Part shown: one piece after another, positions 8,875 through 57,663 of the stretch
Position numbering within the stretch: the stretch's first letter is position 1
How the letters are laid out: the number at the start of each line of letters is the position of its first letter
DNA from: Blastocatellia bacterium
GTDB lineage: Bacteria > Acidobacteriota > Blastocatellia > UBA7656
Reading direction: 5' to 3'
Length of the DNA: 64,000 bases
Assembly: GCA_035575515.1 (NCBI GenBank)
Contig: DATLXU010000136.1
Location: 14,850-78,849, forward strand
Made by a program: the position numbers and the translations under genes
The notes under the pieces: model-generated
What the model was told of the DNA's origin: nothing
Databases searched by the model: none
What the model saw: only the letters and a program-made list of their open reading frames with translations

Positions 8875-8958
8875 GCTGAATGGAGATTGCCTTGAAAATG
8901 GCTTCCAGAGCCTGTTTCAAGCCATTCGGCTTTTCCTAACTGCTTACTGCCTGCTGCC
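8861..8958. mobile_element. MITE-like element: TIRs ACAGTAGGCAGTAGGCTG / CTGCTTACTGCCTGCTGCC flanking a 38-bp palindrome
   Basis: The left TIR supplies the last codons and the TAG stop of the methyltransferase at 8161-8874. The internal palindrome at 8888-8925 recurs at 57591-57628, and the TIR recurs at 35381-35504. Confidence 0.5.
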
Positions 8959-20785: not shown

Positions 20786-22321
20786 TCATTTCTTTTGCAT
20801 GGCTGCCGTTTTTGCTCCGGCGCTTTCGAGCGCGTCTAGCACCCGACCCGGCATGATGCCGAGATACAACGTTCCGAGTATCGCGAGTATCAACCCGGCT
20901 GCGAGCGAGCGAGCGACGGCAGGCGCTTTGAACTCTTGGGCTGGCTCTGCGAAGAACATCGCGACGACTATCCGCAAATAGTAGTACCATGAAATCGCGC
21001 TATTGATTACGCCAATCACAACCAGGACATGAAGCATTGAATTATTAGCCGTCGAGCCTGCGATCCATGCCTGCTTGAAGACGAGGAACTTCGCCATAAA
21101 GCCTGCGGTGAGCGGGATGCCCGCGAGGCTCAACAAAAACAGAGACAGCGCAGTTGCAAGCCCGATGGATTTGAATCCGATGCCCGCGTAATCGCTAATC
21201 TCCGTGCGCGTGTCGCCGCGCCGCGCTATGACTTCGACAATCGCGAACGCGCCTATGTTGATGATGACGTAGCTCAACAAATAAAATGCGACCGACCTCC
21301 AATCGCCCGCGATCATGCCGACGAGCGCGTAGCCTGCATGAGCAATCGAAGAGTATGCAAGCATTCGCTTGACGTTGGTCTGAACGATGGCGACCAGATT
21401 GCCGATTGTCATCGTCAGTATCGCCATCACGATGAGCGCGTTCGTCGTAACCGCTTGGAGCGAACCCATCACGCCCGTGCCTTTTGCAACCGCTGTCGCC
21501 GCAAAGGTCAAAACGAATACGCGCAGAAATGCCGCGAATGCTGCGGCCTTCGAGCCTGTCGAAAGAAACGCGGTGATCGGCGTTGGCGCGCCTTCGTAAA
21601 CGTCCGGCGACCATATGTGGAACGGAGCAGTTGCGACTTTGAACCCGAAGCCTACGAGCATCATCGCCGCGCCTGCAAGCAACATCGGCTCCGAGAATAA
21701 CTGGCCGCTTGAGATGCGGGCCGCGATGTCTTGCAGGTTCGTCGTCGCAGTCTTCATAGCCTGCGAATATGTCGCGCCGTAGATGAACGCGATGCCGTAG
21801 AGCAGAAACGCCGTCGAGAACGAGCCGAGAATGAAATACTTGACCGCCGATTCGTTGGAGCGCAAATCCGATTTGCGATAGCCGCACAGCACGTAGGTAG
21901 AGATTGAAGTAATCTCAAGCCCCAAGAAGATCATTACCAGATCGTTCGCCGCTGACATGAAGAGCATCCCTGTCGTTGCGAACAGCAGCAGCGCAAAGTA
22001 TTCGCCCGTCGGCAGGTCTTCTTCCTTCACCCATCGAAGCGAGATGAGCACAATCAGAATCGCGACGACAAGAAATATCAGCGCAAAGAACAATCGAAAA
22101 TCGTCCGTGACGATCATCCGGTTGAATGATGTTTCGCCGTTGCGCCCCCACAGGCTCACGACGGCTGCGGCAGCGGCTGCAAGCCCGACGAGCGAGATAG
22201 CGCCCGCGATGCGCCGCTCTATCTTGCGCGAGGCGGCGTCAACCATCATTATCACAATCGCGACGGTTGACGTGATTAGCTCAGGCAGTATCGAGTGATA
22301 ATTTATCCCTATCTTGTCCAT
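20786..22321 (-). CDS. nuoN: NADH-quinone oxidoreductase subunit N
   Basis: 511 aa, about 14 TM; antiporter-like subunit pattern. Confidence 0.9.
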   Translation of the reverse strand: MDKIGINYHSILPELITSTVAIVIMMVDAASRKIERRIAGAISLVGLAAAAAAVVSLWGRNGETSFNRMIVTDDFRLFFALIFLVVAILIVLISLRWVKEEDLPTGEYFALLLFATTGMLFMSAANDLVMIFLGLEITSISTYVLCGYRKSDLRSNESAVKYFILGSFSTAFLLYGIAFIYGATYSQAMKTATTNLQDIAARISSGQLFSEPMLLAGAAMMLVGFGFKVATAPFHIWSPDVYEGAPTPITAFLSTGSKAAAFAAFLRVFVLTFAATAVAKGTGVMGSLQAVTTNALIVMAILTMTIGNLVAIVQTNVKRMLAYSSIAHAGYALVGMIAGDWRSVAFYLLSYVIINIGAFAIVEVIARRGDTRTEISDYAGIGFKSIGLATALSLFLLSLAGIPLTAGFMAKFLVFKQAWIAGSTANNSMLHVLVVIGVINSAISWYYYLRIVVAMFFAEPAQEFKAPAVARSLAAGLILAILGTLYLGIMPGRVLDALESAGAKTAAMQKK

Positions 22322-23895
22322 TAACGTTTTTCAGTTGATGCTTGCATCGGCTCATTGCCCGTTTTCGTCGCCGCGACGACGGTGTTGAACCGCTCGCTCA
22401 GATTTTTAATCGTGCGGTCGCTGCGCGCTAGAAAAAGATTCGGGTAGATGCCCATCACGAAAACCAGCACGACTATTGGCGCGAGCGCGAGTTTTTCCCT
22501 GCCGTTGAGGTCAGCGAGTTTTTGGTTTTCGGGATTGTGCGTTTCGCCGAAGATGACTCGCTGGTACATCCAGAGCATATAGACCGCCGAAAGAATCATC
22601 CCCGTCGCGGCGAACGCCGTGAACGTCTTCGAGTACGGAAGCACATTTGATGTGAAGGTGCCGATGAGAATCAAGAACTCGCCCACGAAACCGTTCAGCA
22701 ATGGCAGAGCGATTGATGAGAGCGTGACGATTAAAAACAGAGCCGAGTAAACTGGCATCACGCTGGCGAGACCGCCGAACTCTTTAATCAACCGAGTGTG
22801 GCGGCGGTCGTAAATCATCCCGACGATAATAAAGAGCGCGCCTGTTGACACGCCGTGATTGAGCATTTGATAAAGCGCGCCCTGCATGCCTTGATCGGTG
22901 AACGAGAAGATGCCGAGCACGACGAATCCAAGGTGGCTCACAGACGAATAAGCGACGAGCTTTTTCATATCAGGCTGCACCATCGCAACGAGCGCGCCGT
23001 AAATTATTCCGATGACCGCAAGCGTCGAAATCAGTGTTGCCCATTCGCGCGATGCGTCAGGGAACAGCGGCAGGTTAAATCGCATCAAGCCGTAAGTTCC
23101 CATCTTCAGCAGCACGCCCGCAAGGATGACCGAGCCTGCGGTCGGCGCTTCGACGTGCGCGTCCGGCAGCCACGTGTGAAATGGGAAGAGCGGTACTTTG
23201 ATTAAAAACGCAAGCCCGAACGCCCAGAACAGCCAGCTTTGAGTTCGAGGATCAATCCTCAAGCCTCCCGCTTGGACCGCCTGCGTGATTGTCGGAATGT
23301 CAAAAGTGAAATTGCCGGTTGCGTTCCCGTGCAGGTAATAGACCGCGATTATCCCTGCCAGCATCAGCAGCGAGCCGACAACCGTGTAGATGACGAACTT
23401 GATTGCCGCGTATATCCTTCGCTCGCCGCCCCAGACGCCGATCAGGAAATACATCGGCACGAGCATCACTTCCCAGAAGAGGTAGAACAGGAACAGATCG
23501 AGCGCGATGAAGACGCCGATCATTCCCGTTTCGAGAGCGAGCATCGAGATGAGAAATTCCCGTTGATATTTATGAATCGAGTTCCACGACGAGATGAGCG
23601 CGACCGGCACGAGCAGCGTCGTCAGCATCACGAGCCACAGGCTCAAACCGTCAACGCCGACGTGATACCGCACGCCTAGATTGAAAGCCTCAATCCAAGG
23701 CCTGTCTGTGACGAATTGATAGCCCGCCGCCGAGTCGAACCCGAACGGAAGCGCGAGCGAGACAACAAAGGTCGCAAGCGCGAAGATGAACGCCGTCCAT
23801 TTTAGCGTGCTTTCGTTCGCGCGCCCGACGAGGATGAGTGCTACGACGCCGGCCAGCGGCAGGAAAGTTATTATCGAGAGCAGGTAATCGGTCAT
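22321..23895 (-). CDS. nuoM: NADH-quinone oxidoreductase subunit M
   Basis: 524 aa antiporter-like subunit. Its stop overlaps the nuoN start. Confidence 0.9.
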   Translation of the reverse strand: MTDYLLSIITFLPLAGVVALILVGRANESTLKWTAFIFALATFVVSLALPFGFDSAAGYQFVTDRPWIEAFNLGVRYHVGVDGLSLWLVMLTTLLVPVALISSWNSIHKYQREFLISMLALETGMIGVFIALDLFLFYLFWEVMLVPMYFLIGVWGGERRIYAAIKFVIYTVVGSLLMLAGIIAVYYLHGNATGNFTFDIPTITQAVQAGGLRIDPRTQSWLFWAFGLAFLIKVPLFPFHTWLPDAHVEAPTAGSVILAGVLLKMGTYGLMRFNLPLFPDASREWATLISTLAVIGIIYGALVAMVQPDMKKLVAYSSVSHLGFVVLGIFSFTDQGMQGALYQMLNHGVSTGALFIIVGMIYDRRHTRLIKEFGGLASVMPVYSALFLIVTLSSIALPLLNGFVGEFLILIGTFTSNVLPYSKTFTAFAATGMILSAVYMLWMYQRVIFGETHNPENQKLADLNGREKLALAPIVVLVFVMGIYPNLFLARSDRTIKNLSERFNTVVAATKTGNEPMQASTEKR

Positions 23896-23900
23896 AGTTT

Positions 23901-23932
23901 TGTAGGGGCAGGGCTTGTCCCTGCCCGAATGG
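23901..23932. repeat. palindromic repeat family 1, copy A (TGTAGGGGCAGGG-CTTGT-CCCTGCCCGAAT)
   Basis: Hairpin GGGCAGGG/CCCTGCCC in the nuoM-nuoL spacer. Confidence 0.7.
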
Positions 23933-23984
23933 CCGTTAGGCCATGATCAATTTCAAATTCGCGCGAATCATCGCACTTCGCGCG

Positions 23985-24013
23985 ATTCGGGCAGGGACAA
24001 GCCCTGCTCCTAC
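23985..24013. repeat. palindromic repeat family 1, copy B (inverted copy of A with one mismatch)
   Basis: ATTCGGGCAGGGACAAGCCCTGCTCCTAC. It forms an inverted-repeat pair with copy A 52 bp away and overlaps the nuoL stop. Confidence 0.7.
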
Positions 24014-26130
24014 TTCATTATGAAGTAGCCGATTATCAACAAAGCTCCGAGCACGACGAGGGCGACGTATCCGCGCGCAAGGCCCAGTTGCATGTAGCGC
24101 ATCGCGTTGCCGATACGGCTTGCGAGATAAGCCGCGCCGTTCACCGCGCCATCAATGATGCCAACGTCAATGATCTTCCAGAGCAGGTTTGTCGAGCCGA
24201 CCTTGATCGGCTGCACGATGGCGGCGTTATAGATTTCGTCAACGTAGTACTTGTCTTCGAGCAGCCGCGGCGGCTGCCAAAGCGGTTTGCGGTTGAACCA
24301 CGACCACCCGATGCCTATGCCAAGAAAAGCGATGATGACAGAAATGACGGTCAGCATAATCTCTGTGCCGTGACCTTCATCTTCTGCGGCGGGCGCAGCG
24401 TTTGCCGCGCTCGCGGCTTTCTCGTGCGCGGCAGGCTCGCCGATGATCTGACGGATGGGCGAGCCGGAATGCGCATCCTGCGGATGCGCGATTGACGGCT
24501 CAAGTATGCGCTCGAAATAATTCGGAATCTTTCCGCCCGACAAGCCTTCCGGCACGCCGAGATAGCCCGCGAAGACTGCGCCGATAGCCAGCACGACGAG
24601 CGGCACGGTCATTGAACGCGGAGACTCGCGCGGCGGCCCTGCGTGATGCTCGTGCTCGTTGGGTCCGACTCCGTGCGGGGTGACAGATTGATGCGACTCA
24701 TCGCTGTGTCGCGTGTCGTGATGCGCGGCGTGTGATTCACTGAATCGTTCGCTGCCCCAGAACGTCAGCACCATCAAGCGAGTCATGTAAACGGCTGTGA
24801 GCAGCGCGGTGATTGCGCCGACTATCCACAGAATCTTCGGCCACGCGTCGGGCAAGCCTGCGGTTGTGAATGTGCGGAAGAGAATTTCATCTTTGCTGAA
24901 GAAGCCTGAAAGCAGCGGCACGCCTGAGATGGCAAGCCAGCCGACGAGCATTGTCGCAAACGTCACGGGCATGAATTTTTTCAACCCGCCCATTCGCCGC
25001 ATATCCTGCTCGTGATGCAATCCTACAATGACTGAGCCTGAGCCTAAAAAGAGAAGGGCTTTGAAGAATGCGTGAGTGAATACGTGAAAGATGCCTGCTG
25101 CGAATGCGCCCACGCCGCACGCCAAAAACATATAGCCTAGCTGCGAGATTGTCGAGTAGGCGAGAACTTTTTTGATGTCCCATTGGGCGAGTCCGATTGT
25201 CGCGGCAAACAGCGCGGTCGCTGCGCCGATGATTGCGATTATCATCATCGCCATCGGCGCGTGGATGAATATCGAGCTTGCGCGCGACACCATGTAAACG
25301 CCTGCCGTCACCATCGTTGCCGCGTGAATGAGCGCGCTAACAGGAGTCGGGCCGGCCATCGCGTCGGGCAGCCATACGAATAGCGGTATCTGCGCGCTCT
25401 TGCCCGTCGCGCCAATGAATAACAGGATGCCTATCGTTGTTAATCCCCCGGCGAAGATGGCCGACGCAGTGAACGGATCGGCCAACTGCGTCATCGCCCA
25501 GTTGAATGCGCCCTGAGTGCCGCGCGCCGGGTCGCTGAAATAAAAGATCGTGTGCGCCTGCGAAAACAGCAGCATCACGCCGAGCGCGAATCCGAAGTCG
25601 CCTATGCGGTTGACGATGAACGCTTTCTTCGCTGCGTCGTTCGCGTAGTCGCGCAGGAAGTAATAGCCAATCAGCAGGTACGAGCAAAGCCCTACGCCTT
25701 CCCACCCGACGAACATCAGCAGGAAGTTGTCGCCAAGCACAAGCGTCAGCATCGCAAACATAAACAGGTTCAGGTAGGCGAAGAATCTGTAGTAACCCGT
25801 GTCGCCATGCATGTAGCCCGTAGCGAAGACGTGAATCCAGAAGCCGACAAATGTGACGAACAGAATGTAGATGCCCGACAGCGAATCGAGCAGCAGCGCA
25901 GCATCAGCGCGGAACTGCCCGACGCTTATCCAGGTGAACAGGTATTCGTGGATTTTCGTACCGGCTTCTAGGGCTTCGCGATTTGCAAAGAAGACGTAGA
26001 ATGAAAGAACCGCCGACACGGCGACGGTCGAGCAGGCGATGAAGCCGATGGCGCGTTCGCCCATCCGTTTGCCAAACAACCCGAGTATCAATGCGCCTGC
26101 GAGCGGCGCTAGAATTATCGCGGCTAACAT
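24010..26130 (-). CDS. nuoL: NADH-quinone oxidoreductase subunit L (with His-rich insertion)
   Basis: 706 aa antiporter-like subunit with a long C-terminal region and a His-rich segment SESHAAHHDTRHSDESHQ...HEHH. Confidence 0.9.
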   Translation of the reverse strand: MLAAIILAPLAGALILGLFGKRMGERAIGFIACSTVAVSAVLSFYVFFANREALEAGTKIHEYLFTWISVGQFRADAALLLDSLSGIYILFVTFVGFWIHVFATGYMHGDTGYYRFFAYLNLFMFAMLTLVLGDNFLLMFVGWEGVGLCSYLLIGYYFLRDYANDAAKKAFIVNRIGDFGFALGVMLLFSQAHTIFYFSDPARGTQGAFNWAMTQLADPFTASAIFAGGLTTIGILLFIGATGKSAQIPLFVWLPDAMAGPTPVSALIHAATMVTAGVYMVSRASSIFIHAPMAMMIIAIIGAATALFAATIGLAQWDIKKVLAYSTISQLGYMFLACGVGAFAAGIFHVFTHAFFKALLFLGSGSVIVGLHHEQDMRRMGGLKKFMPVTFATMLVGWLAISGVPLLSGFFSKDEILFRTFTTAGLPDAWPKILWIVGAITALLTAVYMTRLMVLTFWGSERFSESHAAHHDTRHSDESHQSVTPHGVGPNEHEHHAGPPRESPRSMTVPLVVLAIGAVFAGYLGVPEGLSGGKIPNYFERILEPSIAHPQDAHSGSPIRQIIGEPAAHEKAASAANAAPAAEDEGHGTEIMLTVISVIIAFLGIGIGWSWFNRKPLWQPPRLLEDKYYVDEIYNAAIVQPIKVGSTNLLWKIIDVGIIDGAVNGAAYLASRIGNAMRYMQLGLARGYVALVVLGALLIIGYFIMK

Positions 26131-26196
26131 TTTTCCTCAAAGAGTTGATCGTAAATCAGGACGGCATTTCTCTCGTCACGATTTACGATTCACCAT

Positions 26197-26499
<303 letters not shown>

Positions 26500-26502
26500 G
26501 CC

Positions 26503-26575
26503 TTTTGTCCTTTATCATTTGTCGCTTGTCCCTCGTCTTCTGCAAACGATCAATGACAAAGGACAAGCGGCAAAG
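26503..26575. repeat. palindromic repeat family 2 copy (TTGTCCTTTATCATTTG ... CAATGACAAAGGACAA)
   Basis: Imperfect inverted repeat filling the nuoJ-nuoK spacer. Confidence 0.6.
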
Positions 26576-26577
26576 AA

Positions 26578-27090
26578 TCAATCTCCTTCGCGTCTCGCCA
26601 ACACCATCGCGCCAACGACTGCCATCAGTATCAAGACCGATGTTACTTCAAACGGCAGCAGGTAATCTGTAAACAGCGCCGTGCCGATATTCCACGTAGT
26701 GCCGACAGCCGTATCGGCCTGCTCAGCCGGAATCGAAGGAAACGCAATTTGCTTGTCGAGCGGCAGCGCGTAAAACATCTCGGCTATCAATAACCCCGCG
26801 AACGGAATTGCGAGGTAGCGAAGCCACTTGTGCTTCTCGATGTGCGGCACATCCTTCGGCTCGTTCAAGAGCATTATAACGAAGACGAACAGCACCATTA
26901 TCGCGCCCGCGTAGACGACGACCTGAATCGCCGCGATGAACTGCGCGTGCAGCGTCAGATAGAGCGCCGACAGCGACGCGAGCGTGACAATCAACGACAG
27001 CGCGCTGTAGAGCGGGTTGCGCTGAATCAATATGTTCAGCGCGCTCGCTACGGCGATGACTGCAAAGATGATGAAGAGAGTCTGTTCCAT
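26578..27090 (-). CDS. nuoJ: NADH-quinone oxidoreductase subunit J
   Basis: 170 aa, 5 TM, NuoJ/ND6-like. Confidence 0.85.
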   Translation of the reverse strand: MEQTLFIIFAVIAVASALNILIQRNPLYSALSLIVTLASLSALYLTLHAQFIAAIQVVVYAGAIMVLFVFVIMLLNEPKDVPHIEKHKWLRYLAIPFAGLLIAEMFYALPLDKQIAFPSIPAEQADTAVGTTWNIGTALFTDYLLPFEVTSVLILMAVVGAMVLARREGD

Positions 27091-27097
27091 CTTCGAC

Positions 27098-28126
27098 CTA
27101 TCGAATGAATATTAATAAAGTCGCCGTCGCGATGATGTTGATGATCGCAAGCGGCAGCAGCCACTTCCACCCGAAGCGCATCAGTTGATCGTAACGGAAT
27201 CGCGGCAGCGTGAACCGTATCCACATCGCAATGAAAATGAGCACGAGCACCTTAATCACGAAATAGACAAGGCTCAGAATCGGCAGTTGCTCGACGCCAG
27301 GCCCGTTCCATCCGCCTAAAAAGAGCGTCGTGCCTATTGACGCGGCGGTGATGAGGTTTAAGTATTCCGCCATCTGAAAGAGCGCGAACTTCATCGAAGA
27401 ATATTCCGTGTGATACCCGGCGACCAGCTCCGAATCGGCTTCAGGCAGATCGAATGGCGTGCGATTGGTTTCCGCGAGCGACGCGATGTAGAAGATTATG
27501 AAGCCGAATGTACCGAGCGGAAAACGAAAGATATTCCATCGTGGTATGAAGCCGAACCATGTGCCGCTCTGGCTCTTGGTAATTTCTACGAGGTCGAGCG
27601 AGCCTGTCCACAACAGCACGCTCACGATTGCAAGCCCAAGCGCAAGCTCGTAGCTAATCATCTGCGCGCTCGAACGCAGCCCGCCCATCAGCGAATACTT
27701 GTTGTTTGACGACCACCCGGCCAGAACTATGCCGTACACTCCGAGCGACGTGAGCGCGAAGACGTAAAGCAATCCGATGTTCATCTGCGTGACGTGCAGC
27801 GGGATCGTGCGCCCGAACAGATGAATCTCGCTGCCCCACGGGATAACTATCAGCGACATCATCGCGGGAACGACTGAGACTGCGGGCGCGATGATGTAGA
27901 GCCAGCGGTTTGCTTCGAGCGGGATGATGTCTTCCTTGAAGATGAATTTCAGCCCGTCAGCCGCCGGTTGAAGCAACCCCCAGGGGCCTACGCGGTTCGG
28001 ACCGACGCGCAGTTGAATCCAGCTCATCACCTTTCTTTCCATAAAGGTCAGGTAGGCGACGGCTGTGACTAATGCGAAGAGAGTGATAAGGATCTGAATT
28101 GCCCATCCGAGCAGTTGGTCTATCAT
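27098..28126 (-). CDS. nuoH: NADH-quinone oxidoreductase subunit H
   Basis: 342 aa NuoH/ND1 pattern ([27 protein letters not shown]). Confidence 0.9.
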   Translation of the reverse strand: [342 protein letters not shown]

Positions 28127-28180
28127 AAGGAGTGACCGTGTATTGCCAGCTTTATGATCATCACCGCAAGCGTCTCCGGT

Positions 28181-28567
28181 TTACTTTGCGGCCCATTCGA
28201 GTATGCCCTTGCGCCAGACGTAAACAAGCCCGACGAACAGCACGACCATAAACAGCATCATCTCGCCGTAGAAGAGGTATTTCAACGTCCTGTAGGCGGG
28301 GTCGCTAAGGACGCGCGGGAAGACGACGGCCCAAGGCACTAGAAAGACAGCTTCGATGTCGAACAGCAGGAAGACCATAGCGACGAGGTAGAACTTAACC
28401 GACTGACGCTCGCGCGCTGTGCCTACCGGCTCGACTCCGCACTCGTAAGGCATGAGCTTTTCGCGCGTCGGGCGATTGCGGCCCGCGAGTCGCGAAAGAA
28501 TAATGATGGCTGTTGCCATGCCGACCGCAAAGATGAAGATTATTAAAATCGGAACGTAGTTGATCAT
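28181..28567 (-). CDS. nuoA: NADH-quinone oxidoreductase subunit A
   Basis: 128 aa, 3 TM, NuoA/ND3 pattern (PYECG). Confidence 0.85.
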   Translation of the reverse strand: MINYVPILIIFIFAVGMATAIIILSRLAGRNRPTREKLMPYECGVEPVGTARERQSVKFYLVAMVFLLFDIEAVFLVPWAVVFPRVLSDPAYRTLKYLFYGEMMLFMVVLFVGLVYVWRKGILEWAAK

Positions 28568-28761
28568 TGCTGCGGCAGTCTCTTTTTATAAGAACTTTGC
28601 CCGGCAATCTGCGCGCCCACAGACGCGAAACGGATCGCCGGCTAAGACTAGGCATCTTATCGCTTGGCGAAATTGAGTGTCAAGCAACGGTAGTGCCCTA
28701 ATCCTGTGTTGCTGTGCAAAGGATAGTAGGGGCGATTGGCGCGTGGTGCGCTTCGCGCGGC

Positions 28762-28781
28762 GCGGGCTTGTCCCTGCCCGC
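28762..28781. repeat. palindromic repeat family 1, short copy C (GCGGGCTTGTCCCTGCCCGC)
   Basis: Shares the core GGGCTTGTCCCTGCCCG with copies A, B and D. It lies upstream of nuoA. Confidence 0.55.
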
Positions 28782-29084
28782 GACCCGCAAGCGGGTTCCC
28801 CGCGTCAGCGCGATGAAAGAATGCGGTATTTACCGAATGCTTTCATTGCCTTCGGCAATCCGGGCAGCCCTTGTGGCTGCCCCTACAATCAACTGCACGC
28901 CGTCAATTAATCAGCCGCACACCTTTAGACACTGCCCAAGCAACGATAGAAGCGCAGGGCGCGGAAGACTTCACCAGACGATTCAGCGCGTTCAACAAAA
29001 ATATTGTTGCGCGGATTTGCTTCGAGTAACATCGGCGATGTAACTGCCCTCGCCTGAGGCCCTTGCCCCGCGTTGATTCGCAGC

Positions 29085-29459
29085 ATGACTTTCACTTGCG
29101 ATTATTGCAGCGCCGATTTGAACAGGCGATGGCCCGATGCGCAAACTGCGGCGCGCCGTTTGGCCGCGATAGCGGGCGTGCGCCTGAGGACCGCTCGTGC
29201 CCTTATTGCAGCCGGAAGTTACTGGCGCTCGCCAGTCTCGCTTGCAGTTATTGTGGCCGCCGCCTGCCCGAAGACTACATCAAAGCGCGAGGCAGATTTG
29301 AAACGACTCACCAAAACCGATGAGAGCAGCAGGAAAGTTGAAGAAGAGGCCAGCCAGATAGAGCGCCTGAAAGAGCGTCGCAAACGGCGCAAAGGTTCTT
29401 CTGTGGTCAATATGCTCGATATCGGAATGATATTCGATTTGACCGACCTGTTTTCCTAA
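29085..29459 (+). CDS. hypothetical protein; the reading frame is uncertain (an overlapping alternative frame at 29128..29323 encodes a Cx2C-x16-Cx2C-x10-Cx2C zinc-ribbon-like peptide)
   Basis: Two overlapping plus-strand frames are both open with similar GC3. The longer frame has a charged coiled-coil-like C-terminus. Confidence 0.3.
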   Translation: MTFTCDYCSADLNRRWPDAQTAARRLAAIAGVRLRTARALIAAGSYWRSPVSLAVIVAAACPKTTSKREADLKRLTKTDESSRKVEEEASQIERLKERRKRRKGSSVVNMLDIGMIFDLTDLFS

Positions 29460-29485
29460 AATGTGATGACTGCTGAAAGACACAG

Positions 29486-29520
29486 AGGCGCAGGGCTGTT
29501 CCACATAGCCCTGCGCCTCT
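29486..29520. terminator. bidirectional terminator-like hairpin between convergent genes
   Basis: GAGGCGCAGGGCT-gttccacat-AGCCCTGCGCCTC (13-bp perfect stem) followed by TTCGTCACTC. Confidence 0.5.
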
Positions 29521-29556
29521 TCGTCACTCACAAGCAGGAAGGGGGGCAGCGCGCGC

Positions 29557-30414
29557 TCACTGCCGCGTCGTCGCCGCATAGCGGAGCGGGTCAATGGGCT
29601 GATCGTTTTCGCGTATCTCATAATGGACGTGCGGGCCGGTTGAACGGCCTGTGCTGCCCGCATTGCCTATCTGCTCGCCGCGCTTGACGCGCTGGCCGAC
29701 CTCTACGGTTATCTTCGACAGGTGGCCGTAGCGTGTCGTGATGCCATTACTGTGATACAAAATCACGAGGTTGCCATATCCCGCGTGCGGCGCGGCAAAG
29801 ATGACCAGCCCATCGGCTGTGGCCGAAACTGGCGTTCCGAAGTCAACCGAGATGTCCAGCCCTTCGTGGCTTTCGCGTCCTTCGCCGCTGAACGGATTGC
29901 GACGCATTCCGAACCCATCGGTGATGTAACCATTCACGGGCAGACCATTCGGAACCGAAGCGAGCCTCAGCATATCAGACCGAAGGCGATAATTAATCTG
30001 GCGCACTTCGCGCTCAAGCGAGTCGGCTGCAGAATCGAGCACGGCCACGCCTTCAGGGCCGCCAATTCCTATATGCTCATCAATTTCGGCTACGTGCTCC
30101 ATCTTGGCTTGCCGGGCAAGCTCCTTAGACATATCTTCGATATATGAGAGCTGGCCCTTCAGTTTTTCGTAGTTGCTGGCGTAGGCGTTGTTGGCCTGCC
30201 TTAGTTGTTCGTTCTCGGCTTTGACGGAATTGTATTTGATGTTGAGAGCTTCGTGACCCGCCAGGCGAACGGCTGCGAGTATGAAAATCCCAAAAAGGAT
30301 GATGCCAGACCCGACTGCGATGGAAACTGTTTTGGAAGTGATGCGGAACTGCTTGATTCTGGAACTCGATGTAGATACTAACAGAAATGTGTATGCTCGT
30401 TTGTCTTTCGACAT
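29557..30414 (-). CDS. M23-family peptidase (LytM-like) with N-terminal TM and coiled coil
   Basis: HEGLDI ... GNLVILYH ... GRSTGPHVHYEI motifs. Confidence 0.85.
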   Translation of the reverse strand: MSKDKRAYTFLLVSTSSSRIKQFRITSKTVSIAVGSGIILFGIFILAAVRLAGHEALNIKYNSVKAENEQLRQANNAYASNYEKLKGQLSYIEDMSKELARQAKMEHVAEIDEHIGIGGPEGVAVLDSAADSLEREVRQINYRLRSDMLRLASVPNGLPVNGYITDGFGMRRNPFSGEGRESHEGLDISVDFGTPVSATADGLVIFAAPHAGYGNLVILYHSNGITTRYGHLSKITVEVGQRVKRGEQIGNAGSTGRSTGPHVHYEIRENDQPIDPLRYAATTRQ

Positions 30415-30628
30415 TCAGGCGTCTCCTTGGCTCTTTATCAGAGTATGGGGATGTCGCTAATGTCCCACAGCAACACCCTGATCTTACTTTTTTTTACTGC
30501 TACCCTGCTTGTTCGTGAGGGGTGTACTTGCTCAAGTCTTGATGTGCGAGGCTATCACACGAAGGGGCCAATGGCAATAGAGATGGGACAATCTGACGCG
30601 GATTTATGAAAATTGCAACAATATAGCT

Positions 30629-30710
30629 GGTCCTTTGCCCTCAGTCCCTTGTCATTAGTGGTGGGCTTTTCTGCATCAAGCAAATGACAAATGACAAAGG
30701 ACAAAGGACC
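30629..30710. repeat. palindromic repeat family 2 copy (GGTCCTTTGCCC...CTTGTCATT / AATGACAAATGACAAAGGACAAAGGACC)
   Basis: Imperfect inverted repeat with tandem AATGACA/AAGGACA units. Confidence 0.55.
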
Positions 30711-30721
30711 AGAGACGAAGC

Positions 30722-30910
30722 TTAGGTGTGGATCGAGTGGCGCGGCACCAGTATCCTGTAGATGAGATAGCCGACCAGAAGCAGAAAGCCGACGACTGTC
30801 GCTATCCATATCAGGTACAGGAAGAAGCCGACGATGTTCAACACAATCTTCAACACCCAGATGGCGACGATGAACGCCACTATGCCGAACAAAAACTTTA
30901 CGAATCCCAT
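30722..30910 (-). CDS. small 2-TM membrane protein (62 aa)
   Basis: An AAGGAG RBS lies 7 nt upstream of the ATG. Sequence is MGFVKFLFGIVAFIVAIWVLKIVLNIVGFFLYLIWIATVVGFLLLVGYLIY. Confidence 0.45.
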   Translation of the reverse strand: MGFVKFLFGIVAFIVAIWVLKIVLNIVGFFLYLIWIATVVGFLLLVGYLIYRILVPRHSIHT

Positions 30911-30981
30911 AACGAACTCCTTTCAAACTCTTGGCCGCGAAGTCCGCTCCAACAATCGCTTAGTATCGCGGTCTTTCTTGC

Positions 30982-31584
30982 TCACTCGTTGACGAGCGAG
31001 GCTGAAAATGCCTGACGAGCCGTGCTCGCTTCTTCGATATTAACGACATAAGAATCAATGCTTGCTTGATCGCCTGCCGCGTTTTCGCTGCTCAGACTCT
31101 GCGGCGCGCGAAGAGCGTGGCTTGCTGATGAATTATTGCTCAAACGATTTGCTGCCACGCCTGTGCTGATGATCAGCAGGATAAACAGCACTCGCCGTAG
31201 CGTGAAGATTCGCGGTTGCCTGCCATACTCCGCGCGGTGTGTGTAGTGCCGCACAAGCTCGACGCTTGCATAAAGAGCAAGCAGGAGAATCCAGTAGCGG
31301 CCATAGAGTTGCACCGCATTCAAATCGGGATTCGCGCGGCTGGCGAGAAAAAGTCCGCCCACGGCTACGAACACCATTCCGTCTATCGCGGTGCGAGGCT
31401 TGCGCTCGATGGCAAATCCCACGATGCGCATCGCTCCGGCGCAAATCAAAAAGACGGGCCATAATCTCGTAAAGAACATTGCCGCGCCTTCGCCCGTTTG
31501 AAGTATGAGAAAGAGTAATCCTGCGCCTATCAGCAAAAGCCCCGCCGCGAGCATTATTCGATTGTTGCGCGCAGCATCCACCAA
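30982..31584 (-). CDS. hypothetical polytopic membrane protein (200 aa)
   Basis: Four or five hydrophobic helices. It sits 5 nt downstream of the preceding gene on the same strand. Confidence 0.55.
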   Translation of the reverse strand: MVDAARNNRIMLAAGLLLIGAGLLFLILQTGEGAAMFFTRLWPVFLICAGAMRIVGFAIERKPRTAIDGMVFVAVGGLFLASRANPDLNAVQLYGRYWILLLALYASVELVRHYTHRAEYGRQPRIFTLRRVLFILLIISTGVAANRLSNNSSASHALRAPQSLSSENAAGDQASIDSYVVNIEEASTARQAFSASLVNE

Positions 31585-31588
31585 ACGC

Positions 31589-32311
31589 TCACCTCCGGCG
31601 ATGTCCCCACATTGGCTTCACTTTCTCAGACGGCTGCTCATCGAACGAGCCGGGAATCAGAGGATAAGGCGGCTGCCTGTAATCGCGCGAGTAGTCTGGC
31701 TCGCGCTTGCGCTTGAAGTATCTCGTCAAGAGGTAGCCGCCGAACAGTATCAAGGCGACCGGCAGCAACCGCGCGTAAGTTATGAAAGCGAGCGGGCGCA
31801 CAAGCTGAATCACAAGTAGCAGCCCGACAGTTATCAGGACGACTCCGATTATCGGCGCGCGCTTGATGATCATTCGCTTGAATCGTTCTTCATCGGCTTC
31901 GGGGCTTTCGCCTGCGGCAATCAATTGCGCCGTGCGGTATGAGTCCATTATCGAATAGAGATAAAACATGAAGGCCGCAAGTCCGAAGACACCTGCCAGC
32001 ACTTTGACGTGCGTAAGCTCTATCAGCCCGATGATAGTGACGAAGTAAACGACTGCTTTGATGTTTTGGCGGTTGTAAACAGCCCCCATGCCGGGAAGCA
32101 GCGCAAGCAGCGCAGCCAGCTTCGCTTTGCTACGCGGCCTTTGTTGTTCGCGATAGTATGAGCGGCGCGAAAGACCCTCGATGCCATTCACTATGCAATC
32201 CTGGCAATAAGGATAGCCCTTGATTCTATGATCACATGCGGGGCAAAGCCCGCGCGCGCAACTGCTGCACTGAACTCGCGCCGCGCTTGTTGTGTGGTAA
32301 GAGCAATACAT
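31589..32311 (-). CDS. membrane protein with N-terminal Cys-rich zinc-ribbon (B-box-like) domain
   Basis: CSYHTTSAARVQCSSCARGLCPACDHRIKGYPYCQDC is followed by 4 TM helices. Confidence 0.6.
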   Translation of the reverse strand: MYCSYHTTSAARVQCSSCARGLCPACDHRIKGYPYCQDCIVNGIEGLSRRSYYREQQRPRSKAKLAALLALLPGMGAVYNRQNIKAVVYFVTIIGLIELTHVKVLAGVFGLAAFMFYLYSIMDSYRTAQLIAAGESPEADEERFKRMIIKRAPIIGVVLITVGLLLVIQLVRPLAFITYARLLPVALILFGGYLLTRYFKRKREPDYSRDYRQPPYPLIPGSFDEQPSEKVKPMWGHRRR

Positions 32312-32428
32312 AATAGCTTCTGTCCTGAACGTGGCCCGATTAATTATTCCCCGTTAATTGAAACGATTTCGCAAGGGCGCCAGTTCTGCAAATTGCGACG
32401 TCGGGGCGCGACCTGAGTAAACAATGGG

Positions 32429-33256
32429 CTAATTCTTTTCGCGATGGTCGACGGGTTTGTTCCCGTTCGGGTGCTCTTTATGCTTATTGGTTTCCTTGTC
32501 TGCTTCATTAGCGCCGCCTAGCGTCTCCCAGATGCCGCCGATTTCTTTGCCAACCTGATCGAAACTTGCCATTACCTCGTCGGTCTTCGTCGCGCCTTCG
32601 TCGTAAAGCTCAGAGGCTTTAGTTTGAGCCTGGCGAAAGATGCCTTTCACGGAGCCGTCATCTGAAAACCCCAAAAACAAAAATGCAACTGTCGCGCAGG
32701 CAAGCCCTGCGGCGGTGACAAGCCGCCAGCGCGGATTCTGAGACGGGCGCGGAAGCATCCTTGCAACAAGAGCCGTGACGCGGTCTCGAATGCGCATTCT
32801 CATTCGCGCTCGCTTTGGCATTATTGCGACGAGGCGATTAATTAAGCTGTCAGGCGCATCCACCTCTTCGTATGTGTGAACCGAATGGCAGGCGGCTATG
32901 GCATAGACGATTTCCGTGAGCAGGCTTGAACACGCTTCGCACTGCGCGGCATGTTCTTCAAAGCGATGATAGACCGGAGCCGGAACGAACCCGTCGAGAA
33001 ACTCAGTTATCAACTCTTCAAATCCGAAGCAATCAATCGGCGCGTGCTCTGATGGAATCATCAGTAGCGCGGCTTCGAGCATCGCGGGCGCTTCGATTTC
33101 ATCTTTGCAATCCGAGAGAGCCGACTTCAACTCATCGAGGAGCGCGCGGCATGCGCGGCACTGAAGCGCGTGCTCGCGAAAGAGGCTCGCGTCCGATGGC
33201 AGAAGCGCGTCGTCAAGGTAATCGCTCAGCTTATCCTCAAAAATACTGCAATCCAT
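32429..33256 (-). CDS. anti-sigma factor with two HxxxCxxC (zf-HC2-like) segments and one TM helix
   Basis: FREHALQCRACRALLDEL and FEEHAAQCEACSSLLTEI, then a TM helix and a short periplasmic tail. Confidence 0.7.
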   Translation of the reverse strand: MDCSIFEDKLSDYLDDALLPSDASLFREHALQCRACRALLDELKSALSDCKDEIEAPAMLEAALLMIPSEHAPIDCFGFEELITEFLDGFVPAPVYHRFEEHAAQCEACSSLLTEIVYAIAACHSVHTYEEVDAPDSLINRLVAIMPKRARMRMRIRDRVTALVARMLPRPSQNPRWRLVTAAGLACATVAFLFLGFSDDGSVKGIFRQAQTKASELYDEGATKTDEVMASFDQVGKEIGGIWETLGGANEADKETNKHKEHPNGNKPVDHREKN

Positions 33257-33426
33257 AACTGTTCAAAACGATGGCAAACCAATCGTCCTCACGAAACAAC
33301 TTCGCTGTGACCGACCATTACTACGATTGGTCAGCAGCGAGCCGATTTTCTTGGGCGCAGTTTCGCGGCCATTGCGCGTTGGCACGGTTGGCCCTCGTAC
33401 TAGCAGCCTCCGGCCAACTGGCCGAG

Positions 33427-34014
33427 CTAATCGGGATTAACCTTCATCCTGCGCAGCACCTTGGCCAGTTCTATGCGGCCCCTGTTAATTCGACTCTTGA
33501 CGGTGCCTTCCGGTATCTTCAGAAGATTAACGATCTCCTGGTACGTCAATTCCTCTATATCGCGAAGAATGACGCACTCGCGCAGGTCTGGCGACAGCTT
33601 ATTAATCGCAGCAAGCACCTGGAGCCTTCTTTCCTGGCGTTCGAGCGTGCGTTGCGGGCTGTCGCTCGCAGACGGCAGGTGATACTCGTGATTGGCCAGG
33701 TCGTCGCCCGTGTCCGTAGGAGTCCGCTGCCGTTTGCGGTAATCATCAATAATCAGGTTGCGCGCAAGCCGCATCAACCAGTTCGATAGGTCGCCCAGGC
33801 TGGGATCGTACTGACCGAGCGAGCGATATACGCGAATGAAGACCTCCTGCGTCAGGTCTTCAGCCGCAGCATGGCTCGAAGTGAATCGGTAAGCGAGGTT
33901 GTAGATGCGGCGCGAGTACTGGCGCACGATCTCCGACCACGCCTGCTGGTCCCCCTCCAGACAACGCTGAACGATTTCAGCATCGTTTGATGTCAACGCA
34001 AGTCTTGCTCCCAC
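33427..34014 (-). CDS. ECF-family RNA polymerase sigma factor
   Basis: Region 2 (DLTQEVFIRVY) and region 4 HTH (LTYQEIVNLLKIPEGTVKSRINRGR). Confidence 0.85.
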   Translation of the reverse strand: MGARLALTSNDAEIVQRCLEGDQQAWSEIVRQYSRRIYNLAYRFTSSHAAAEDLTQEVFIRVYRSLGQYDPSLGDLSNWLMRLARNLIIDDYRKRQRTPTDTGDDLANHEYHLPSASDSPQRTLERQERRLQVLAAINKLSPDLRECVILRDIEELTYQEIVNLLKIPEGTVKSRINRGRIELAKVLRRMKVNPD

Positions 34015-34298
34015 CTGTCGCCTTCTCGCTTGCTTTCTGGTTTAACCTCAATCCAAGTAACTAATGTCTTCCAAACTCGCTAAACGAGATGATGACAGAA
34101 AATGTTTCACCAGAACCGACGCACCGAACTGCCGCCGCCTCTCGGCTGTCCGAACGGCGTGCGCAGGCTCTATATTTTGTGTTAGAATCCCCGCTCGACC
34201 GTGTATATAGGCTGTCTGCTCCGGGTTGCTCCGAAGTCGGGGATCGTAACGCGCCCTTGATTTCAAAAATAGTATAACACGAGGAAAATATCACGGCT

Positions 34299-35396
34299 GT
34301 GAGCGCGCGGCTCAAAACATTTCTAAGCATCGCCATCGGCGCTTTGTTCGTCTACTGGTTCGCGCACAAGCTCAACTGGGGCGAAGTCTGGGCCGAAGTG
34401 CGCAAAGCCAACTGGCTGCTGCTCGGCGCGGCTGTCGCTCTGCTGGTTGGGACGTATTTCGTCAGAGTTCTGAGATGGCGCGCCCTGCTTGCGCCTATGG
34501 CCCGCCCGCCGCTGCGCGCTCTGTTCCGCGCCACGATGATTGGCTTTTCGGCCCTGTTCGTCATGGGCCGTGCGGGCGAGATGATAATCCGCCCGGCTGT
34601 GCTTTCCGTGAAAGAGCGCGTGCATCCATCGGCGAGCTACGCGACCGTTATGATCGAGCGCGTCTTTGACATGGTGATGGTAGTCATTTTCTTCGCTGTG
34701 AACCTCGCATTCTTCGAGTACGGCGAGCACGACGCGGAAGCGATGCGGATGTTCGGATGGATAAAGGCAACAGGCATCATTTTATTGTTCGTCTCGGCTG
34801 CGGGAATCTATGGACTTTCGGCTTTCAGCCGTCATCGCGCAGGCGTGCTGGCCTATCTTGAAAGAAAACTCGCGAGGCTGCCCGAGCGTTTGTCTGAAGG
34901 GATATTGAGCCTGCTGCGCCATATATCGGAAGGGCTTGGCGCATTGCACGACGCGCGCGAGCTGACGATAACGGTTTCATACACGGTTCTCATCTGGCTG
35001 ATGGTTTCGGTTGCGCATCTTGCGGTCGTGCGGGCATTCGGGATTGATTACAACCTCGTGCCTTTCACGGGCGCGGTCTTCGTGATGGGCCTTTCGATGC
35101 TTGGCTCGGTAGTTCCAACGCCGGGCGGAGCAACGGGACCGTTTCACCTTGCGACGGCTGCTGCCCTTACCTTCTTAGGCGTCGAGCAGGACAAAGCCGC
35201 ATCCGTTGCAATCATCCTTCACCCGATAATCTTCGCGCCCGCGACCGTCTTCGGATTGTATTACATCGCAAGAGAAGGATTATCGCTTGGAAGACTCAAG
35301 CGCATAGGCACGCGTCGAAGGGCCGAAGTCGACCGGCTCGCTGAAATCGAAGAAAAGAAAGAGCAGGAAGCAATTCTAATAGGCAGCAGGCAGTAG
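34299..35396 (+). CDS. UPF0104 / lysylphosphatidylglycerol-synthase-TM-like (flippase-like) membrane protein
   Basis: GTG start, 8 TM. The N-terminal pattern FLSIAIGALFVYWFAHKLNWGEVWAEVRKANWLLL is typical of this family. Confidence 0.7.
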   Translation: MSARLKTFLSIAIGALFVYWFAHKLNWGEVWAEVRKANWLLLGAAVALLVGTYFVRVLRWRALLAPMARPPLRALFRATMIGFSALFVMGRAGEMIIRPAVLSVKERVHPSASYATVMIERVFDMVMVVIFFAVNLAFFEYGEHDAEAMRMFGWIKATGIILLFVSAAGIYGLSAFSRHRAGVLAYLERKLARLPERLSEGILSLLRHISEGLGALHDARELTITVSYTVLIWLMVSVAHLAVVRAFGIDYNLVPFTGAVFVMGLSMLGSVVPTPGGATGPFHLATAAALTFLGVEQDKAASVAIILHPIIFAPATVFGLYYIAREGLSLGRLKRIGTRRRAEVDRLAEIEEKKEQEAILIGSRQ

Positions 35397-35504
35397 GCAG
35401 AAATCAGTGATAGGGGGGAGACACGGCGATGCGGAGTAATAAATCTGACTCCGCTACGCGCCGCGTCGCCGTGTCTCCGTATCGTTCTTGCCTGCTGCCT
35501 GCTG
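35381..35504. mobile_element. MITE-like element: terminal inverted repeats AGGCAGCAGGCAGTAGGCAG / CTTGCCTGCTGCCTGCTG flanking an internal palindrome
   Basis: The internal palindrome is GGAGACACGGCGATGCGGAGT ... ACTCCGC...CGTCGCCGTGTCTCC. The left TIR supplies the last codons and TAG stop of the upstream gene. The TIR is related to the element at 8861-8958. Confidence 0.5.
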
Positions 35505-35526
35505 AAAAGGTGGACGAGATAGAACT

Positions 35527-35997
35527 ATGAAATGCCCTTTCTGCGGTTACATGGAAGACAAGGTCGTTGATTCGCGCGAGAGCCGCGAAGGCGACGTGAT
35601 TCGCCGTCGTCGCGAGTGTTTGAAGTGCGAGCGGCGGTTCACCAGCTACGAACGGATTGACGAGATACCTTATATGGTCGTCAAAAAAGACGGCACGCGC
35701 GAGCCGTTTTCGCGCGAGAAAGTCCTCAGCGGCATCTTGAAAGCCACAGAGAAGCGGCCAATTCCAATGGCCAAGATAGAGGCGCTTGTCAACTCGGTCG
35801 AAAAATACGTTCAGGAATCGCGCGAGCGCGAGCGATCAACGGAAAAGATTGGCGAGCTGATAATGCGCCGCTTGAAGGAACTCGACAAAGTTGCCTACGT
35901 CCGCTTCGCATCTGTGTATTTGGACTTCAAAGATGTATCGGAATTCATGAGCGAGCTGAGGACGCTCGTGCGCTCAGGCCGCGCGCGTGAGAAATAG
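35527..35997 (+). CDS. nrdR: transcriptional repressor NrdR
   Basis: MKCPFCG...CLKCERRF zinc ribbon plus ATP-cone; 156 aa. Confidence 0.95.
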
Positions 35998-36300
35998 AGA
36001 GATCGAGAGAATCATAAACGAGCGAATCCCGTAAAAACACCCGCGACGGGTTTGCCTCTTGTTCATTAACCCCCTTTCTCAACAATGATGATCGTTACGT
36101 AATTCGATGGTGTTCGGCTCTGCAATCCCCTCGAATTCGCTCGCTGCGCTGAACAAAAACGCTCTGCTGCGCCTGCGGATTAGAGATTCACGCCTTTGAT
36201 GAGTCCAGAGGCTTGATGAAATCCGACGAAGAGCGATTGCTCAGGTCACACTTTTAACGAAGTCACGTCGTTAAACGCTTCCTTCATCATCGCGCATCGC

Positions 36301-36329
36301 TTGTAATTGTTACAATAGAAACTTACAAT
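36301..36329 (+). promoter_or_regulatory. sigma-70-like promoter candidate upstream of lon, inside palindrome TTGTAATTGTTACAA
   Basis: TTGTAA-N17-TACAAT lies about 30 nt upstream of an AAAGAGGA RBS and the ATG at 36362. Confidence 0.4.
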
Positions 36330-36361
36330 CTTCTTTTCAGAAAAGAGGACTACTGCTGAAT

Positions 36362-38728: not shown

Positions 38729-38744
38729 ACGCTCGCGCGTCATA

Positions 38745-38802
38745 TGTCCTTTGTCGTTTGCGGGTAGAGGGCAATCTCTCAACCAATGACAAAGGACAAA
38801 TG
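38745..38802. repeat. palindromic repeat family 2 copy downstream of lon (TGTCCTTTGTCGTTTG ... CAATGACAAAGGACAAATG)
   Basis: Inverted repeat beginning 17 nt after the lon stop; a likely terminator-like hairpin. Confidence 0.6.
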
Positions 38803-39000
38803 TTTCAATTTTCTTGCGGGCCCGGCCTTTTATTGACTCTCACTTTTTCAGCGTGTTATAAACTCGACACTCGGCAGGAATGCGGAACCCAAGTGTTCGA
38901 GATGCGACTTGGCAGCCCCGCGTGACCGTGGAGCTTGAGGCGGTCACCGAAGTCGCAGCCCTCTGGACCGCATAAGAGAATCGAAAGGATAGAATTAAGG

Positions 39001-40617: not shown

Positions 40618-40809
40618 CTTTTAAGAACTGGAAACAACCTGACCTTTTCATCAGCGCGAGTCTCAATATCGTTAAAGAAGTCGACTTTATAAGCCTGCGC
40701 GTCAAATCTTAATCGTATTGTTTCTTCCATCCTGGCTCTGCCCGAAATCAATTGACTATAGCTCCCGCTTCTAGTAAACCTGCGTCAGGTTGTATTGGAG
40801 GTGGGGCGA

Positions 40810-41372
40810 TGAAAATCAAAGGCAACATTCTGCTTTCACGATTAGCGTTTGTAAAAGAACACTTCGGCGAGGAGGCGCTCGACAGGGTCATCGAATCCTT
40901 GCCTGCCGAAGACCGGGCGACGCTCAGGGGAATGATTAGCAACGTCGGCTGGTATTCATTCGACATTGGCAAGCGGCTCGATGAAGCTATAGTTAAAGTC
41001 CTCGGCAAAGGCGACATGAAAATCTTTGAAGATATAGGCGCATCTTCTGCCGAGCAGAATCTCACGACCGTTCACAATCTCTTTCTCAAGCTCGGAAATC
41101 CTCAAGCCTTTCTCGCTCAAACGCCAGTGCTATATCGCCTCTATTACGATATCGGCAGGAGAGAGTACGAGCCGACGGGACCAACTTCAGGCGTGATGAC
41201 GACTTACGATGCAGAAACCTACTCTACTGCGGATTGCTTGACAGTCATCGGATGGTACAAGAAAGCCCTCGCGATGTGCGGCGCTAAAAACGTAGTGATG
41301 ACGGAAGAGACCTGTCGCGCAAGAGGCGGTGACTTTTGCCGTTATCGAATATCGTGGCAGATGGATAGTTGA
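40810..41372 (+). CDS. hypothetical protein (187 aa); family unresolved
   Basis: A GGAGGTG RBS precedes the ATG at 40810. I cannot assign a family confidently from the sequence alone. Confidence 0.5.
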
Positions 41373-41437
41373 ACAGATAATCCCGTTCGCCGAGTGGTGG
41401 GGTAATAATGTGTAGAGGAAGGAACAGAGGCCGAATC

Positions 41438-41470: not shown

Positions 41471-41548
41471 ACTTTCAACTCGCCATTACCCGCTACCGTT
41501 CGCCGATTTGACTGATGACGGCGCGCCGGTTAAGTCTACTAATCGAGA

Positions 41549-57628: not shown

Positions 57629-57663
57629 CAAGGCAACAGCCACCCTGGCCCCCGACCCTTATT

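Follow-up and report, generated by a model that had tools for sequence, protein, structure and literature searches.

Palindromic repeats in the nuo region of a Blastocatellia bacterium: very probably a GTAG-tagged REP/REPIN family with RAYT-linked relatives

Repetitive extragenic palindromic (REP) sequences of the GTAG-tagged superfamily preferentially occur as head-outward (HH) dimers 20-100 bp apart, according to the survey that described them (PMC3733652). In Escherichia coli, TnpA-REP, a REP-associated tyrosine transposase (RAYT), binds the folded single-stranded REP with its 5' GTAG, cleaves at a nearby CT, and can transfer strands; GTAG is needed for both binding and cleavage (PMC3479197). 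REP doublets are the proposed mobile unit (PMC3116915, PMC3337134). Short perfect-palindrome REPs with enzyme-critical loop bases belong to the group 3 REPtrons (PMC8266576). Systems made of hairpin-forming REP doublets (REPINs) and a RAYT are described as lineage-confined and vertically inherited (PMC5581495, RAREFAN preprint); it has been proposed, too, that transfer made their distribution patchy (PMC6006769). The superfamily survey lists Proteobacteria, Cyanobacteria, Chloroflexi, and the Planctomycetes-Verrucomicrobia-Chlamydiae (PVC) group; for Acidobacteria (Terriglobia), it gives only Y1 transposases flanked by terminal inverted repeats (TIRs), and no REPs (PMC3733652). In a later survey, Solibacter has atypical structures with a CnGA foot, accompanied by class 3 enzymes (PMC6006769). 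A literature search found no published description of a REP or RAYT in Blastocatellia. In this study, we analyzed the palindromic repeats in and around the nuo genes of a Blastocatellia bacterium (UBA7656; assembly GCA_035575515.1, contig DATLXU010000136.1, forward-strand positions 14,850 to 78,849); this 64,000-nt stretch is referred to as the window. The palindromes very probably constitute a GTAG-tagged REP/REPIN family, and relatives of this bacterium carry a RAYT gene flanked by them (REPtron).

The repeat unit is a 25-mer, GTAGGGGCAGGGCTTGTCCCTGCCC, which consists of a GTAG head followed by the core GGGCAGGG-CTTGT-CCCTGCCC; the unit without GTAG is a 21-mer, GGGCAGGGCTTGTCCCTGCCC. Its geometry is an 8-bp stem, a 5-nt loop (CTTGT), and a single GTAG head 5' of the core. 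An initial annotation, made from the sequence alone, had listed four copies of this palindrome, and all four were recovered. Two sites, 23906-23926 (+) and 41444-41464 (+), carry the 21-mer without any mismatch; 23989-24009 (-) differs from it at one position and 28759-28779 (+) at three. In 100 dinucleotide-preserving shuffles of the window, no match at three or fewer mismatches was obtained. A repeat finder and a hairpin census revealed a fifth copy at 28862-28886, GGGCAGCC-CTTGT-GGCTGCCC-CTAC, in which two stem positions are altered on both sides so that pairing is kept. The fifth copy, the GTAG head, and the extent of the family far beyond the source genome had been missed by the initial annotation. 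The census of perfect stems of at least 8 bp gave 11 distinct hairpins in the 64 kb, three of them from this family; with five copies in total, the repeat lies in DNA with a G+C content of 54.7%.

Two of the copies form an inverted pair between nuoM and nuoL. REP copy 1 (23902-23926, +), with its GTAG head, stem GGGCAGGG, loop CTTGT, and stem CCCTGCCC, matches the 25-mer exactly; it is the left half of the doublet and lies 6 nt from the nuoM start codon. REP copy 2 (23989-24013, -; GTAGGAGCAGGGCTTGTCCCTGCCC) is inverted and has one mismatch. It overlaps the nuoL stop, as had been noted earlier: the stop codon, TAG at 24010-24012 on the minus strand, consists of the final three bases of this copy's GTAG head. 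The heads, at 23902 and 24013, point outward, and the 62-nt spacer between the copies (23927-23988) holds two small secondary hairpins, ATGGCC-GTTA-GGCCAT at 23929-23944 and TCGCGCGAA/TTCGCGCGA at 23959-23985. The whole REPIN-type HH doublet (23892-24023) fills the nuoL-nuoM spacer. The arms are 42 nt long and 86% complementary. As single-stranded DNA (ssDNA), the doublet folds into one long hairpin (-52.2 kcal/mol, z = -11.9); as RNA in the nuo sense, it folds at -83.2 kcal/mol (z = -13.1). Inverted REPs, a short spacer, and folding as one hairpin make it a REPIN by definition. The last nuoL codons form an 8-bp palindrome of their own at 24010-24028, CTACTTCA-TTA-TGAAGTAG, which takes in the REP head and the stop codon and may be a chance feature or a remnant.

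Near 28.8 kb, two more copies make up another head-outward doublet, now decayed, which lies upstream of a promoter-like nuoA site (28683-28654, -). The copy at 28726-28779 (+) starts with the head GTAGGGGC (28726-28733), followed by about 30 nt of extra GC-rich sequence and then GGGCTTGTCCCTGCCC, after which comes a small hairpin, ACCCGC-AA-GCGGGT. The initial annotation was right about its presence but had called it shortened; judged from its sequence, it looks like an interrupted REP whose head has been split from its hairpin by about 30 nt. The partner is the variant copy, which with its secondary hairpin covers 28845-28886 (-) and reads GTAG-GGGCAGCC-ACAAG-GGCTGCCC-GGAT-TGCC-GAAG-GGCA-ATGA. 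Its stem is compensated, its loop is flipped relative to the head, and the GGAT-TGCC-GAAG-GGCA-ATGA tail of the family is retained. A 109-aa open reading frame (ORF) with a GTG start (28714-29043, +), without a Pfam match and probably spurious, overlaps both decayed copies upstream of nuoA. The remaining member is a singleton at 41438-41470 (+), where the symmetric extension TGTAGGGGGCAGGG-CTTGT-CCCTGCCCCCTACA gives a perfect 14-bp stem with a 5-nt loop, as annotated initially and confirmed in the hairpin census; its RNA fold has -34 kcal/mol (z = -5). The CGAAT flank reported for three copies is present. It joins copies 1 and 2, on their 3' side, to the second small hairpin, and in the singleton, it lies 5' of the head.

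The 21-mer was searched on both strands of the GTDB representatives (one genome per species, 596 Gb), where about 0.3 chance occurrences were expected and at least 120 stretches were matched. The repeat thus recurs far beyond the four sites listed at first. Single metagenome-assembled genomes (MAGs) contributed up to 10 of these stretches. When 155 copies from public genomes were aligned in register, G, T, A, and G occupied the four bases 5' of the core in 148-151 of them (95-97%), on that side only. Position -5 is T in 70% of copies and the next base outward is a pyrimidine in 79%; farther out, conservation is lost. The 3' side of the core is variable, and only a following G is common. Because the conserved GTAG is one-sided, the repeat is an asymmetric 25-mer despite its palindromic core. 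The loop is strand-specific as well: in all DNA fetched, 168 of 175 GTAG-headed perfect hairpins with an 8-bp stem and a 5-nt loop have CTTGT when read from the head. Six further fully paired versions of the stem were found, five of which keep the loop (GGGCGGGG, GGGCGACC, GGGCAGCC, GGACAACC, and GGGCAACC). The stem is conserved as a structure, and the head and loop are conserved as sequence and strand. Of 159 copies elsewhere, 54 have a small hairpin immediately 3' of the core, built from 28 different stems, versus about 5 in shuffled tails; both halves of the window doublet carry such a second hairpin. BLASTN of the window against the 120 matched loci gave no long similarity, so the source genome is not among them.

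Pairing and location follow the same pattern. Among 62 neighboring pairs less than 300 nt apart, 54 are head-outward, two head-inward, and six tandem, and the doublet spacers cluster at 17-25 and 43-46 nt with a maximum of 172 nt. The copies are biased toward intergenic DNA: a crude ORF cover, certainly spurious in part, takes in 87% of the bases but only 33% of 181 copies. An equal frequency in coding regions, which the initial annotation had named as a sign of a compositional artefact, was not found. The REP/BIME-type reading proposed there (BIME, bacterial interspersed mosaic element) is borne out by the one-sided head, the head-outward doublets, the exclusion from ORFs, the recurrence, and the RAYT flanks described below; BIMEs of the E. 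coli type alternate Y and Z REPs with defined linker motifs and bind IHF, gyrase, or Pol I; neither such linker motifs nor IHF/gyrase binding was apparent in the sequences inspected, no dedicated search for them having been made. No viral contig matched the 25-mer, which indicates that it is not phage-borne, and no plasmid matched the window doublet. Contigs of short-read MAGs often end at a REP: in L052, L054, L079, L088, and L110, no more than about 100 nt lie between the REP and the contig end, which is expected if a multi-copy repeat interrupts the assembly.

A search with E. coli RayT (K-12 record) was carried out with phmmer against the ORFs of the fetched loci and against window ORFs of at least 60 aa. 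Four matches were obtained in the fetched loci, and one of them, in locus L016 from a Pyrinomonadaceae MAG, sits directly between REPs. This ORF (1412-1936, -; 174 aa) is a Y1_Tnp protein (PF01797, E = 1.4e-10) and aligns with E. coli RayT over its whole length at low similarity (E = 4.9e-8). Its only match in the PDB is 4ER8, E. coli TnpA-REP bound to a REP (E = 1.5e-6, residues 56-150), with the HUH motif and the catalytic Tyr aligned. Upstream, a canonical 25-mer with a distal head sits 13 nt before its ATG; beyond the 3' end are two inverted copies. The Y1_Tnp-like ORFs of L043, L052, and L103 have no flanking GTAG hairpins and were set aside as unrelated Y1 genes.

The L016 protein has 292 relatives at E <= 1e-10 in a large protein collection, many of them labelled 'REP element-mobilizing transposase RayT' by JGI. 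All relatives with a named organism are from Pyrinomonadaceae, Blastocatellia, or Acidobacteriota, and a second search, started from the divergent RAYT P0109, again retrieved only Acidobacteriota-named proteins. The motifs LMPDHxH, LWQRQF, and YIxxNP are at least 90% conserved among 158 RAYT relatives. We examined eight distinct RAYT loci from Pyrinomonadaceae/Blastocatellia assemblies (L016, L124, L125, L126/127, L128, L129, L213-215, and L216; 54-98% amino-acid identity to L016, with 54-90% for the seven members whose surrounding DNA was fetched). All eight have a REP upstream with the head distal and an inverted copy downstream, and one has the same bulged REP variant on both sides. In one subclade (P0112, P0128, and P0143), the RAYT gene (2001-2510 in L129, 601-1146 in L213, and 601-1083 in L216) lies between a glycosyltransferase (Glycos_transf_2) gene and an asparagine synthase (Asn_synthase) gene in different assemblies. 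This shared synteny is the pattern expected of a vertically inherited, single-copy RAYT and is what REPIN-RAYT vertical inheritance predicts. The coding frames of P0112 (L129) and P0128 (L213) extend into the downstream REP, which supplies C-terminal residues (...RAGTSPAPT); in L216, the stop codon precedes the REP.

The repeats are ordinary REP/REPIN elements of a known kind. As in the description of the GTAG-tagged superfamily, a terminal unpaired GTAG is present in more than 90% of copies, HH dimers occur, GC-rich stems (6-13 bp in the superfamily) form compensatory sub-families, the copies are intergenic, and Y1 genes are associated (PMC3733652). As in REPIN-RAYT systems (PMC3116915, PMC5581495), inverted REPs form a long hairpin and the RAYT gene lies between REPs. 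Those systems are described mainly in Pseudomonas and Enterobacteria and are said to be confined to single lineages, whereas here an identical 25-mer occurs in several phyla. The GTAG head 5' of the hairpin, the enzyme fold family, and the aligned HUH and Tyr residues are shared with E. coli REP/TnpA-REP (4ER8, PMC3479197), but in E. coli the REP is an imperfect palindrome whose bulge is required (group 2), and the palindrome here is perfect. The short bulge-free palindrome, fixed loop, and varying stem are shared with the group 3 REPtrons of Stenotrophomonas maltophilia and Marinomonas. Among the entries in Table 1 of PMC6006769, TnpA-Y1 subclass 2.5 (Bertels group 3) is the one nearest to the RAYTs themselves (LMPDHFH, LWQRQF, and YIxLNP; about 155-177 aa). 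The DHFH and WQ motifs are common to both, and the Y motif is YIxLNP here versus YI[VI]ANP in subclass 2.5, which is described in Xanthomonads and Pseudomonads (PMC6006769); the motifs suggest a resemblance to subclass 2.5/group 3, not an assignment. IS200/IS605 elements likewise encode a Y1/HUH enzyme, carry sub-terminal hairpins that have a guide tetranucleotide on the 5' side, and do not duplicate their target. They differ in having both end hairpins on one strand and in being multi-copy as whole units; here, the hairpins on either side of the gene are inverted, and it is the short repeats that are multi-copy, not the gene.

The published TnpA-REP scheme accommodates all of these traits: a head and a loop that are strand-specific, a stem free to vary, a YT preference just outside the head, doublets with outward heads, and a RAYT within a doublet. 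In that scheme, the RAYT, an HUH single-tyrosine nuclease related to IS200 transposases, would be encoded once per genome between two inverted REPs (REPtron), would recognize the hairpin and the GTAG head strand-specifically on ssDNA, and would cut and rejoin the DNA beside the element. Doublets would then spread to tolerated intergenic sites, often just after stop codons. The RAYT presumably mobilizes the repeat, and the source genome may still encode one. Some points weigh against this reading. No RAYT match was found among the window ORFs of at least 60 aa in the 64 kb, and the window copies could be relics of a lost enzyme. To our knowledge, transposition by an enzyme of this RAYT clade has never been demonstrated, and linkage is not activity.

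The nuoL-nuoM spacer was measured in 80 related metagenomic loci gathered with NuoM as the probe. In the window, it is 114 nt long and holds the REP doublet. In four relatives with about 66-75% identity over the NuoM N-terminus (L137, L138, L139, and L209), the spacer is 11-18 nt long and empty; more distant relatives mostly have spacers of at most 20 nt or overlapping genes. The NuoL C-terminus, IIGYF[VI]MK*, is conserved with and without the insert. These relatives are distant; hence, the empty and filled spacers show gain or loss of the doublet, not recent transposition. In L131, L132, L133, L135, and L136, a spacer of about 95-104 nt carries a different GTAG head-outward doublet, GTAGGGGCGGCC-CTCCGT-GGCCGCCCC with an inverted copy downstream (about 1390-1500 in each locus), and in L145 and L152, it carries yet other GTAG-type palindromes. 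The site thus appears, from these sequences, to have been colonized independently and repeatedly by different REP families. Different families in one spacer fit an insertion hot spot; they are also compatible with selection for any strong hairpin, which weighs against the REP/REPIN reading. No target-site duplication is present at the doublet borders (TTTT/GTAG ... CTAC/TTCA), as expected for Y1/HUH elements.

The best-surviving alternative, which we consider unlikely, is that the hairpins are primarily host RNA elements, such as mRNA 3'-end protectors, processing sites, or attenuators in operons such as nuo, and that their repetition results from a selected function, not from mobility. The extreme stability of the doublet RNA in the nuo sense and the unrelated GTAG hairpin doublets in the nuoL-nuoM spacer of several relatives favor it. 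So does the position of the doublet, which begins at the nuoL stop: in E. coli, according to work cited in PMC12306157, a gene is translated less when a REP lies less than 16 nt from its stop codon, and at nuoL the distance from REP to stop is zero. However, an RNA role leaves three DNA-level traits unexplained (the GTAG head on one side only, the strand specificity of the loop, and the RAYT flanks), and four relatives manage without an insert in the spacer. No window copy has a T tract, a terminator-like call, or an Rfam family. In the scan for intrinsic terminators, no REP copy was among the 24 terminator-like sites in 23000-42900, and the tails of the copies (GAATGG, CTACAAAACT, and CTACAACTTTC) contain no T tract. 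At gathering thresholds, no Rfam family was found anywhere in the window, and permissive thresholds around the doublet yielded sub-threshold noise only. The terminator or attenuator identity offered in the initial annotation is accordingly not supported as the primary one.

An RNA role is better viewed as a possible secondary effect of an inserted REPIN. A doublet transcribed with its host operon would form a very stable RNA hairpin, which could affect nuoL termination or translation and nuo mRNA stability or processing. Between nuoL and nuoM, the RNA would form a near-perfect duplex of some 27 bp, a possible processing or stabilizing element, and an effect on nuo expression is conceivable on these grounds.

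[quoted passage not shown] The two inverted 42-nt arms and the overall length of about 130 nt would suit it. So would the Chloroflexota MAG bin_187 (L012, L055, L063, L077, L110, L113, and L116), in which the 25-mer lies in a MITE-like unit of about 125 nt with a second REP stem, GTAGGGGCAATGCCTTGTGCTTGCCCC, and outer inverted repeats of about 30 nt. Against it, the doublet has no flanking target-site duplication, singletons and variable spacers (17-172 nt) are common, and the only transposase gene between copies is the Y1/HUH RAYT, in eight of eight loci. Moreover, either arm forms a hairpin by itself and bears a head on one side only, the mark of a REP and not of a TIR. What remains of the tiny MITE suggested by the initial annotation is a non-autonomous mobile element, in effect the REPIN concept. 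A chance or compositional palindrome or an assembly artefact, for which nothing more speaks than the GC-rich, simple look of the core, can be dismissed with near certainty, given the empty shuffles, the at least 120 stretches against about 0.3 expected, and the conserved asymmetric flanks.

Two further identities were rejected. The copies are inverted and have no unique spacers, unlike those of a CRISPR array; the sole array with a 54-nt period, a tandem array of the 25-mer in an Anaerolineales locus (L104, 2234-2496), has near-identical 'spacers'. An integron attC site was set aside for lack of an R''/R' core, judged by eye from the sequence without a dedicated search.

Among the at least 120 matched stretches, the identical 25-mer occurs in Acidobacteriota, Chloroflexota, Armatimonadota, Bacteroidota, and Omnitrophota. 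Carriers include two complete Capsulimonadaceae chromosomes (L010, L034, and L039), a Hymenobacter lapidiphilus isolate (L006, 7618-7704), and Bacteroidales, Omnitrophota, and Terriglobia MAGs; further loci outside Acidobacteriota are L070, L084, and L120. The 3' flanks of the 25-mer are lineage-specific (e.g., TTCT in Armatimonadota), which argues against contamination. One REP sequence type may therefore have been amplified in at least five phyla, either because REPIN-RAYT systems repeatedly crossed phyla or because the enzyme-substrate constraint is unusually rigid; we put this forward tentatively and hold it to be somewhat doubtful. No RAYT was seen in the 8-kb stretches of the Armatimonadota, Bacteroidota, and Omnitrophota loci. 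A matching RAYT outside Acidobacteriota was not found, and every named relative with at least 54% identity is acidobacterial. RAYT relatives on plasmids are only about 30% identical and say nothing on cross-phylum transfer of this REP. Three Y1-transposase genes on Chloroflexota plasmids were inspected: other GTAG REPs flank two of them, and unrelated tandem repeats flank the third.

The REP copies of the window all lie between Pfam-supported genes. The genes on either side of the doublet, nuoM (22321-23895, -) and nuoL (24010-26130, -), both encode Proton_antipo_M proteins and are followed by the Pfam-supported nuoH (27098-28126, -) and nuoA (28181-28567, -), in agreement with the names first given to them. 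The 41.4-kb copy is located between a DUF2378 gene and an ABC exporter gene. No tRNA or tmRNA gene was found in the window. A second, unrelated palindromic family, ATTGCCTTGAAAATGGCT...AGCCTGTTTCAAGGCAA, occurs at 8886-8924 and 57597-57635 with 85-87% likeness, and its 8.9-kb copy is nested in further inverted arms (8855-8885/8947-8977) rich in CAGTAGGC units. An intergenic segment at 30627-30712 has 30-nt inverted arms, 83% complementary, with short GACAAAGG-type tandem units.

Now that the palindromes are identified, annotation as terminators, small RNAs, or regulatory sites is unnecessary. The nuoL-nuoM spacer is a candidate site for testing effects of REPINs on operon expression. Either explanation of the 25-mer in several phyla, if true, would run against the lineage-confined picture of REPIN-RAYT systems. 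For Blastocatellia and Pyrinomonadaceae, a soil group outside the published REP surveys consulted, REP/REPIN-RAYT elements are now documented; with a fixed head and loop and a free stem, they offer clean natural data on substrate reading by group-3-like RAYTs.

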